A stretch of DNA of 64,000 nucleotides from Convolutriloba macropyga (lineage: Eukaryota), in NCBI RefSeq assembly GCF_964194025.1, contig NC_134478.1, positions 44,082,001 through 44,146,000 of the forward strand. The letters run 5' to 3'. Below the pieces are notes generated by a model. That model saw only the letters and a program-made list of their open reading frames with translations. It was not told the origin of the DNA and did not search any database. Positions 53,401 to 56,400 of this stretch are shown one piece after another (position 1 is the stretch's first letter; every line of letters starts with the position of its first letter). The translations under genes were made by a program, and so were the position numbers.

Positions 53401-56400
53401 TCGTGAATTTCGAACGGATTGATCTGATAATCAAGCCAATGAAGGCACAATTCTTCGAAAGCCTTGAAATTTTGCATGACTTTGTGCCCACTTGCTTGGC
53501 GCAAGCGAAAGCACTTCGCTTTCTTCATTTCTTTACCGTTCGTTTCTAAGAACAAAAAACAAAAGAGATCGATAGGAACACACAAAGATGTCAAACAATA
53601 GCTGAGAGACTGTTCTTACTTGATATCTCCCCAGTTAGCAAATAGTAAACACTGGCAAACATACATAGGCCGTACTCATCGGCCAGTTTTGTTGTCTTTA
53701 CACCTAGATCCGGCGTTCCAAGCACAACGGGATCCGTTGTGTGCCCGCTAGGATTTGCCGTCCATTCTAAATCTAGTGCGGTACAAAGGTCTTGTCGCCG
53801 TCGTGTACTCAAATGCGTCACAAGGAACTTATCGTATCGATGATTATTCTTGTAACAAGTTGGACAAGATCGTTTATATCTACAAACATCAGACACCGCA
53901 TTTTAGTAATCGCCTAACCTAGTTGCCACTAAAAAGCAAGGGAGCACAACAAACTTACTCTTTTACTGCTTGTTCAAGGCCTCCGGTGTAAGGTGGAAGA
54001 AATAGACCTGCCGCTGTTAAGGCGGTCACCATTGGTTTTATCTGGTCATGGTGAATGCCGTTCTTCACATGTGCAACATCGAGCACTTCCGCAACGCTCT
54101 TAACGGTTGCAACTTTTTTCCCACCACTCTGTAACTCGCCTTCACTGTTTAAATAAGAGCGCTTGAATCGCTTCGCCCAACAATCGCGGTCCACTTGCGA
54201 AGTCAAGGCAGCCTCCTTTCCTAACTTATTGCCATTTTTGATAAAGTTTTTACTTCTCAACATAAGGGTTCTATCCGTTTCGTCTCTGAAATAGATTTTC
54301 ACCTTTTTGACACTTTGGAAACCGAAACCTTGGCAAAAAACTACGACGCATTGAGGCTCACACATAATTTTGCAACAATTGAGCATAAGAAGCAAGTTAT
54401 TGTACTATCACCTGATAAAAAGCAAAATAGAAAACAATTACACTATCACAATTAAAAGTAACGTCCCTCCACCACTCACAACCGAGCACCGAGTTGTGAA
54501 CTGTCAAAATTAAGGAGCAAACTAACAAAGTAGTTTTTTACACCTAACGCCACAGTCGGCGATACGGATTTAAACTGAATTTGTTATACTACAAATATAC
54601 ATGACTCTCACCTAAAAGTTCCTACACCTAATGCCACAGGCGGTACTGTTTACTGAAAATAATGTTTTACAAACATGCGTATATTTGTTCTCATACTAAA
54701 ACCTGTAACAGTTGCCATAAAACTCCATTCCTGAAACAAACTCATCATTATTCTCATGTTTAGAAAGATGAAGTTTGCCACTATAATGCTTAATTTCATC
54801 TTATTCTGTATTGGTACCGCTCAAACAGCGGAAGAGCGCAACTTTGATGATGTACTCGAAAAAGGAATAATTTTCAACGAAGAAACGAAAATTCTGCTGG
54901 CTGAAAAGTTCGTACCAGTTCAATTCATGGTTCCATTTCCATCGTACAACTTTTCCTTAAAACCAGAGTTGAATACATTACTCAAACGCCTAAATGACAT
55001 GTGGAAATTACCATCTATCCACTGCCCACTTGATTTCTCATCTAGTTTTAATGGAAATGCCTCATCTTTCAATGTTAATTGGATCATGTCAAAGATAGAG
55101 AAAGAAGTCAATAAGTCGAGTCTGGATGTTCAACTCATTCGAAACGAAACTTCAACCTTTCTCCAAAACAGTGATGAAATCAGAGGAACAAACAACCGAG
55201 TTAAACGAGGAGCACATGTCGCAGTCGCTGCTATGGCTGGAATAGGGCTCTTTGGTTCTGGTGTCCTCATGGGAAATGGAGGCGGATGCGGTCTCTCTGG
55301 CATTTTTGGATCATGCCAAGACAGAGCTAAAGAGAATGCAGCTAATATTGATCGACTATACAGTTTCACTTCATCACTGACGGACTACGTAATGCAGATA
55401 AAAACTGCAACTGATGAAAAGTTTTTCTTAGTTGGGAATGAATTGAAAGAGATTAGAGAGACACAAAACCAGATGATAGAGACACAGAATAAGAATTGGG
55501 CTATCATCGAGGAGCAATTTAAAGTTTTCGAGGGCAACTTCCACATTCTACGAGACTGCACCCAAATGCTGTTCTCGAACCAACAGCTCAATTTCAACTT
55601 CGACACAGCAGCTTCTCTTCTCTCAATGCTCTATACGGACGTCAAAAGCTATAGAACAGCTCTCTACACGTATCGCATGAATGTCCTAAATGCCATCACA
55701 ACTTTACTACAACAACATTTACCAATGTCCTTGGTACCCAAGGAATCTCTACTTGCTATACTGAAATCTGTCGCTGCTGACCAGTCTTTAAGTGGTAGCA
55801 GATTGTCGTTAGCCATACCCCCAACAGATTTATTATCATATTATGACGCAAAACTTCTTCGAGATGTCGTGACTTTGGATGAAGGACTAGTTCTTACACT
55901 TGCCATTCCGTTGGCTTCGCGACAAACTGTTTTTTCTACGTACCAGGTGCAAATAGTTCCGATGCCACAGCCAGAACCTCGTATGGCAATCCGATGGGTC
56001 ATAGAAGCGCCCTATCTTGCCATATCAGAGGATCAAATGGAATCGGTAACACTTTCAAAAGATCAGTTTGAGGCATGTCTAGGATCAGCTAGATACCGAA
56101 TATGCCATGAGACTATCGCTACCCAAACGAATCATCCTTCTTGCCTGGCAACCCTCTTCGTTAGTTCGACCCTAAAAGCAGCGGAGACTTGCGACACTGA
56201 AGTATTTTACCTTCCTACGCAAGCGAATGCTGCCAATTTAGGATACGGCATTTGGCTAATCACTTCGGCTTCAGATTCTTATGAAATGCGTGAGTACAGT
56301 CTTGATTCTGTACATAAGTCATGGAACAGAATAATTCCGGGATGCAAGATATGCATTATAACAGTCGAATGCAACTATCAAATAATTGTTGGAGAAAATT

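Follow-up and report, generated by a model that had tools for sequence, protein, structure and literature searches.

We analyzed a 64,000-nt window of the Convolutriloba macropyga genome (NCBI RefSeq assembly GCF_964194025.1, contig NC_134478.1, positions 44,082,001 to 44,146,000, forward strand; coordinates below are those of the window) and found that an env-bearing Ty3/gypsy retrotransposon within it carries an additional gene in antisense, between pol and env. This gene (minus strand, 54278-52942) is predicted to comprise five exons and 346 codons encoding, in order, an integrase N-terminal extension, an HHCC zinc finger, an OTU protease module and a basic tail. Related copies across the genome reveal that the gene is under purifying selection and that the whole cassette has been exchanged between elements that are about 95% identical elsewhere. 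With about even confidence, we read it as an accessory gene that a clade of env-bearing Ty3/gypsy elements conserves and exchanges, and its product as likely a nuclear deubiquitinase directed against host control and tethered by its integrase head. What is new here is the recognition of the head as integrase-derived, the test of membership in the Ginger1 transposons and the mapping of the exchange on a near-identical backbone.

The predicted gene consists of five open stretches linked by four GT..AG intron candidates, all on the minus strand. Coding exon 1 (53959-54278) covers the integrase N-terminal extension and the two histidines of the finger (54071 and 54053), while exon 2 (53620-53879) supplies C-x2-C (53866 and 53857), a helix preceding the OTU and the OTU catalytic cysteine (53665), so that predicted intron 1 (53880-53958; 79 nt, phase 2) falls between HH and CC. 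Predicted intron 2 (53546-53619; 74 nt, phase 1) is followed by exon 3 (53364-53545), which would form the helical lobe of the OTU, and predicted intron 3 (53299-53363; 65 nt, phase 0) by exon 4 (53105-53298), with the OTU beta-sheet and the position of the catalytic histidine (53139). After predicted intron 4 (53027-53104; 78 nt, phase 2), exon 5 (52942-53026) encodes a short basic tail with a candidate nuclear localization signal. The first-pass annotation, made from the sequence alone, had covered 53855-54285, which takes in exon 1 with intron 1 and the first part of exon 2, and had described an integrase N-terminus joined to an OTU-like part within about 60 residues. Its two peptides do lie on the minus strand at this place, FIKNGNK...DVAH...HH within the frame that spans 54404-53955 and YKRSCPTC within another, from 53878, parted by the 79-nt intron candidate, and its spacing agrees with the 64 codons between the last zinc cysteine and the OTU cysteine; the OTU module itself begins about 10 residues after C-x2-C. 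An acceptor candidate precedes exon 1 (54286/54285), and two further intron candidates upstream (54479-54412 and 54361-54286), which are less well kept, are possible introns of the 5' untranslated region.

Ten close copies exist in the genome, the window copy included. Both splice ends of introns 1 and 2 are kept in all nine of the others and those of intron 3 in eight; the finger ligands (H70, H76 and C-x2-C) are kept in 10/10 copies and the OTU cysteine in 9/10. The first codon of exon 1 is a start codon in 8/10, and the OTU catalytic histidine is present in seven of the nine copies that cover its position. The window copy has neither the start codon nor the histidine and, because both are lost, is probably an inactive, dead copy of a live family. 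This decay is general, since pol of the same copy is also broken.

A search of the genome with exon 4 returned 93 matches, with identity down to about 30%, from which we picked 20 loci spread over the identity range (a non-random sample) and read 20 kb around each. Env lies downstream in 19/20, pol upstream in 17/20 and a pair of long terminal repeats (LTRs) around 12/20; at least one of pol or env adjoins the gene in the same orientation at every locus, and none of the 20 is a free-standing transposon or host gene. An antisense coding gene downstream of pol is thus a family-wide feature. Both histidines are invariant in 11/11 exon-1 sequences aligned from other families and nearly so in a set of 63, and C-x2-C, a third cysteine and the G-x-C of the OTU are invariant in 10/10 sequences across families. 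Phase 2 was recovered for intron 1 in 10/20 rows and phase 0 for intron 3 in 12/20, the remaining rows being degraded or not resolved by the script, and the catalytic histidine is present in 13 of the 14 rows, among 20 examined, in which its motif was located. Zinc ligands, catalytic cysteine and histidine, and splice phases are therefore retained at 20-40% identity.

The ratio of nonsynonymous to synonymous substitution rates (dN/dS) was 0.12, 0.13, 0.18 and 0.29 in four diverged pairs from other families, and 0.26-0.30 when eight close copies were compared with a subfamily at 85% identity. These values, together with residues and splice phases kept at such low identity and a position fixed in 20/20 sampled loci, leave little room for the view that the gene is a nested transposon or a captured piece of a host gene, decaying and without function; this view is largely refuted, and we regard it as very improbable. 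The missing start codon and histidine of the window copy would fit it; the decay of that copy is, however, general, and a profile of exon 2 matched none of the loci read by eye as host OTU genes at E ≤ 2. The accessory-gene tree is mostly unresolved and serves only to show long branches.

The family is not confined to this genome. An exon-1 profile search of 1.84 billion proteins matched 82 clusters, 81 of which are short gene calls (54-220 amino acids) from other assemblies, most of them ending where exon 1 ends and some with members reading on into C-x2-C. The remaining match, a repetitive bacterial protein without the matched stretch, was dropped. One cluster was compared with this genome and reached only 30-36% identity to anything in it, and thus the family extends beyond C. 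macropyga. From ENA, a search with the exon-2 alignment added five short gene calls belonging to the family. Longer relatives were not found by word-indexed searches, either with a single exon or with the 63-row alignment (lengths 386-2000).

The assignment of the head to integrase is based on motif conservation, fold, Atlas and profile-profile comparison. Its ligands are those of an H2C2 finger, with 35 residues between the second histidine and the first cysteine compared with 29 in the integrase of the carrier element. Pfam Integrase_H2C2 matched exon 2 weakly (E = 0.34), and no H2C2 match at E ≤ 0.1 was found among the 63 exon-1 sequences. Exon 1 was modeled with a predicted local distance difference test score (pLDDT) of 83, and the first Foldseek row for this model was the N-terminal domain of murine leukemia virus integrase, at a weak E value of 1.3. 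When the 194 Foldseek chains were re-aligned structurally, a second look at these chains rather than a wide search, all nine rows with Z ≥ 5 were N-termini of foamy-virus (residues 8-91) or Ty3 (26-126) integrases; the best reached a middling Z of 6.0 (root-mean-square deviation 3.2, 76 aligned residues), and the best non-integrase 3.1. A natural read-through relative submitted to Atlas had the H2C2 cluster as its second match (0.90). Fold match, Atlas and invariant ligands together support a head made of an N-terminal extension and an HHCC finger. On the antisense strand, neither the window nor 20 related loci yielded a match to an integrase-core profile (best E = 2), which bears out the earlier description of an integrase N-terminus joined to an OTU with the DDE core missing.

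Among integrases of this genome, the head matches those of its own carriers best, though weakly. Against the exon-1 profile, integrase heads of the carrier clade scored 6.1-13.1 bits (nine rows) and those of other Gypsy lineages 0.4-6.9 bits (twelve rows), and HH probabilities were 44% and 3%, respectively; the nine carrier rows are close kin from about four families, and the comparison set contained no Ginger1. An F-x-x-P-x-F segment is also common to the head and the integrase of the carrier.

The OTU part appears to be of the transposon type. In this genome, the exon-2 profile, including the helix before the catalytic cysteine, picks out OTU domains located within or next to DUF6570 frames and others in unclassified frames of 2,500 amino acids (best E = 2 × 10^-5), and HH comparison with 13 transposon-type, Pfam-positive OTUs gave 96% for exon 2 and 85% for exon 4. 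DUF6570 is a domain that we take to be linked to Helitrons, a link backed here only by a search listing. The module thus resembles OTUs of the transposon type, probably those of Helitrons, and the best matches were not host OTU genes lacking a finger, the outcome that would have spoken against the first-pass annotation. All of the top 15 Foldseek rows for an OTU model are OTU domains, each of them weak; the model was built from a natural copy with two in-frame introns read through. Part of exon 3 is misaligned in eight rows of the OTU alignment. With a catalytic cysteine in G-x-C and a downstream histidine in the family, though not in the window copy, the module is likely a ubiquitin-removing enzyme. 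The basic tail of exon 5 has a similar form in three families besides that of the window. No meaningful match came from sequence searches of the PDB, and UBE2L3 rows (E = 0.2) were taken as chance. Separately, the open frames of about 2,500 amino acids (L104-L110, L116; for example, G000:C4:51247693) have an N-terminal OTU and no other Pfam match in the 650 amino acids read.

Exchange of the gene was evident from a sister family whose DNA matches that of the window element at 95% identity across 44437-52394 and at 96% across 54536-57944; in protein, its reverse transcriptase (RT) is 98% and its Env 99% identical. From roughly 52000 to 54535, identity drops to about 40-60%, and the same split was seen in five more copies of the sister family. 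The segment at 52000-54535 is thus an exchangeable cassette: the sister family has another version of it, with an exon 1 only 23% identical to that of the window although the integrases are 95% identical. Among families more generally, exon 1 is 17-40% identical and integrase cores are 47-86% identical. Several copies contain tandem duplications of cassette parts or of the whole region (L055 / G000:C9:38,190,500-38,191,500; G000:C12:37,530,697 and 37,535,749; G000:C7:6,930,582 and 6,932,872).

These patterns bear on the mechanism put forward by the first-pass annotation, in which the HHCC head would multimerize with the integrase of its own element and carry the OTU into integration complexes. 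An OTU so placed might shield integrase from ubiquitin-driven decay or tune repair at the insertion site. The modeled integrase N-terminus fold of the head and the higher rank of carrier-clade integrase heads over other Gypsy lineages are in keeping with such a role, and the accessible text of PMC2836005 proposes that transposase-linked OTU and Ulp1 domains act during transposition. However, a dedicated partner would be expected to track integrase, whereas the head evolves far more quickly than the integrase core and heads of 23% identity are exchanged on integrases of 95% identity, so that multimerization with the element's own integrase is weakened and we consider this role unlikely. A model that paired exon 1 of one family with two integrase cores of that family gives no verdict either way (score 0.00, with alignments unused and the head lacking its C-x2-C helix). 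Because near-identical integrases carry swapped, fast-changing heads, we favor a host-facing deubiquitinase.

For such a host-facing deubiquitinase, the antisense position would protect the introns from loss when the genomic RNA is reverse-transcribed, and the basic tail would take the protein to the nucleus. There the integrase-derived head, freed from catalysis, may tether the protein to DNA, chromatin or a host protein, and the OTU may remove ubiquitin-like marks that would otherwise lead to silencing of the provirus or destruction of its proteins. The related extension domain of foamy-virus integrase contacts nucleic acid. The enzyme activity, location and target of the protein are what we infer from these features.

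Several observations weigh against this interpretation. The target of the head is conjectural, and both transcription and splicing into a message for a 346-residue protein are predicted; four sequencing runs of unrecorded kind over 51500-55200 gave contigs that run through the introns with no intron joint, as DNA would, and are uninformative on expression. Young close pairs, which differ by few changes, have dN/dS values of 0.27-0.78. The Foldseek matches are weak for both parts (E = 0.12-0.27 for the OTU, from a middling model with pLDDT 64 and introns included; E = 1.3 or worse for the head, where Z < 8 can reflect a common arrangement), and no Pfam OTU match was obtained on the exons or on the intron-containing read-through. 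The first Atlas match was an unnamed bacterial cluster (0.92), and the H2C2 cluster had a low shared-feature count (115/256). Finally, the basic tail was recovered automatically in only 4/13 rows.

Where the gene came from is a separate matter, compatible with either function. The first-pass annotation had suggested a possible internally deleted, Ginger-like transposase. The gene as it stands is not a Ginger1 element, having no terminal inverted repeat (TIR), target-site duplication (TSD), DDE core or GPY/F motif. The longest inverted match between 52460-52945 and 54290-54760 is 10 nt, a length reached by 88/300 shuffles and far from the 40-270 bp of Ginger1 TIRs, so the TIR remnants anticipated on both sides of the gene are absent, as are the intact TIRs and TSD of a recent independent insertion. 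Nor do arms of this kind appear among the inverted repeats of the window. The 4-bp CCGG/CCGT TSD with TGTNR ends had one unpaired match inside exon 1 (53983) and none at the flanks, and the sequence leaves no room for GPY/F between finger and OTU module. Columns that are candidates for the YPYY motif, placed without a Ginger1 alignment, are aromatic in 29/57, 42/63 and 38/63 sequences; YP or FP occurs in 5/62, and the proline of YPYY is mostly absent. The gene does have a C-terminal OTU, as Ginger1 elements may have OTU or Ulp1, and methionine at column 1 in 46/47 rows indicates that it starts exactly at the N-terminal extension.

Descent from an OTU-type Ginger1 transposase, inserted backwards in an ancestral element and then deprived of its DDE core, GPY/F and ends by one deletion, has in our judgment just short of an even chance. 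The order of parts is the same as in the Ginger1 elements of PMC2836005, as far as its accessible text describes them (YPYY, H2C2, ..., OTU, with 0-4 introns and OTUs alignable with those of Helitrons). The start of the gene coincides with the N-terminal extension, and an intron lies within the integrase-derived part, where an LTR-element integrase would need intron gain. The OTU begins so soon after C-x2-C that a single deletion suffices. On the other side stand the missing TIR, paired Ginger end and TSD, the rarity of YP or FP, and the absence of any transposase-length relative among the 82 profile matches and the word-indexed searches. No integrase was found within 1.5 kb of 49 OTU loci of the genome (some duplicates). 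H2C2 searches of the genome gave 12,552 candidates, of which 150 were scored and all 20 fetched adjoin RT/RNase H, a result that leaves room for Ginger1 in the genome. The F-x-x-P-x-F segment shared with the carrier's own integrase also argues against this descent, and the N-terminal extension is not diagnostic of Ginger1 because Ty3, foamy virus and the integrase of the carrier have it too.

That likeness instead suits an origin that we hold tentatively, as plausible but below even probability, in which an inverted, partial Gypsy integrase head was fused to a Helitron-like OTU and introns were gained later under antisense shelter. The carrier lineage, whose integrase is the best, though weak, match of the head profile, would probably be the source of the head, and the OTU with its preceding helix matches the genome's OTUs in or beside DUF6570 frames. 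This route has its costs, however: a start must arise anew, head and OTU must be fused and as many as four introns must be gained, and the head comparison behind it has the limits of kinship and of a missing Ginger1 given above. The rest of the probability falls to other routes. A bolder combination, rather improbable in our view, is that an enveloped retrotransposon lineage of animals domesticated a Ginger1 gene, with the core cut out and the introns kept, as an antisense deubiquitinase aimed at chromatin or integration complexes, with cassettes traded like immune-evasion alleles.

The carrier is a young env-bearing Ty3/gypsy element with an LTR pair, a TSD, gag, the order RT-RNase H-integrase and an env-like open reading frame (ORF), all on the plus strand. 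Its 5' LTR (44437-45001; 565 nt) is 99.6% identical to the 3' LTR (57380-57944), which has a polypurine tract directly upstream, and a 5-bp duplication (ATTAG) flanks the outer sides of the pair. A gag frame with a CCHC knuckle (45548-46801) was recognized by frame and Pfam scan, and pol (46732-51223) matched RVT_1 (6 × 10^-22), RT_RNaseH (1.5 × 10^-17) and rve (1 × 10^-9); pol is broken by a frame change near 50015-50127 and probably by a second near 51070-51223. The env-like ORF (54735-57053; 772 amino acids), recognized by layout only, has no Pfam match but by eye shows a signal, a basic cleavage-like site and a C-terminal hydrophobic segment. LTRs of the window family start and end with TA, and several relatives have TG...CA; the target duplication is also 5 bp in at least two relatives.

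Between pol and the antisense gene lies a further sense ORF (51765-52460, plus strand), with relatives at 15/20 sampled loci; in some families this type of ORF is in frame with pol (frames of 725-906 amino acids). Its C-terminal half presumably resembles a TARG1/OARD1-type macrodomain, by eye, and it gave no Pfam Macro match. Its 3' part swaps together with the cassette. Other families have a second antisense ORF of about 90-125 amino acids between exon 1 and env (for example, G000:C15 near 15,693,400-15,693,800; L065:1241-1618, minus strand), with a signal peptide, a Cys-Cys-x-Asn-Gly ectodomain, one transmembrane segment and sometimes a basic stretch after it. It was recovered in 11/21 rows by pattern search and in one more by eye, and is missing in the window's family and in the swapped sister family. 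Outside the element, the window contains a host exon that looks by eye like the PSMC5-like proteasome AAA-ATPase (60048-60716, plus strand), 2.1 kb beyond the 3' LTR, a single long host ORF that is EDC3-like by eye (23818-25194, plus strand) and, upstream of the element, a 44-nt inverted repeat that is 86% complementary with a 13-nt loop (42539-42639).

Among known systems, Ginger1 elements with a C-terminal OTU share with this gene the integrase N-terminal motif region, H2C2, an OTU of the Helitron kind and spliceosomal introns, according to the accessible text of Bao, Kapitonov and Jurka (2010; PMC2836005), where they encode 500-800 amino acids rather than the 346 found here. Unlike them, the present gene has no DDE core, room for GPY/F, TIR or CCGG/CCGT TSD, and travels as the passenger of an LTR element. 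Host genes derived from Ginger1 (Imagin, Gin-1 and Gin-2; PMC12863088 and PMC2836005, each available in part) are likewise intron-bearing and integrase-like with catalysis lost, and amphipod Imagin has lost the whole core (PMC12863088). Those are single-copy host genes, however, and the consulted part of PMC12863088 makes no mention of an OTU for Imagin, whereas the present gene has one and is kept by a mobile element. Plant elements offer a positional likeness: Grande gene23, RIRE2 and Retand ORF4 are family-wide antisense ORFs downstream of pol, some nuclear and one with a transposase-derived domain, but without known function (PMC7264820, in its available text). That text mentions neither introns nor a clear enzyme; here, by contrast, the element is an env-bearing one from an animal, and the gene has four predicted introns and a predicted Cys/His protease.

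The carrier itself can be likened, by layout, to the metazoan env-carrying Ty3/gypsy 'errantiviruses', including Tor-like F-type elements, which have the same LTR-gag-pol-env arrangement; in its accessible portions, PMC13524379 refers neither to OTU or macro domains nor to antisense. Bdelloid elements are known to have additional sense ORFs, with OTU and introns unmentioned in the accessible part of PMC5408684, and OTU was not found in the available text of PMC6338049. A literature search for an OTU gene in LTR elements, with most subscription journals and Repbase outside its scope, found none described. As a working analogy, viral OTUs such as that of nairovirus, present among the Foldseek rows, combine an OTU fold and a Cys/His pair in a selfish replicon. 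Viral OTU deubiquitinases serve immune evasion. The nairovirus domain differs in belonging to an RNA-virus polymerase polyprotein and in having no integrase head, and the match to it is weak and no closer than those to cellular OTUs.

Complex retroviruses are marked by accessory genes that counter host control; in animal Ty3/gypsy elements such genes are, to our knowledge, barely known. A recognizable enzyme makes ubiquitin-linked control of retrotransposons testable in an invertebrate, and a fast-changing, swapped head, in which an integrase N-terminus is reused without its core, points toward a host target. The gene could also settle the suggestion, in the accessible text of PMC2836005, that transposon-borne OTU domains matter for mobility. 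If domestication from Ginger1 proves true, one mobile element would have domesticated the transposase of another as a ubiquitin-erasing tool of counter-defense.

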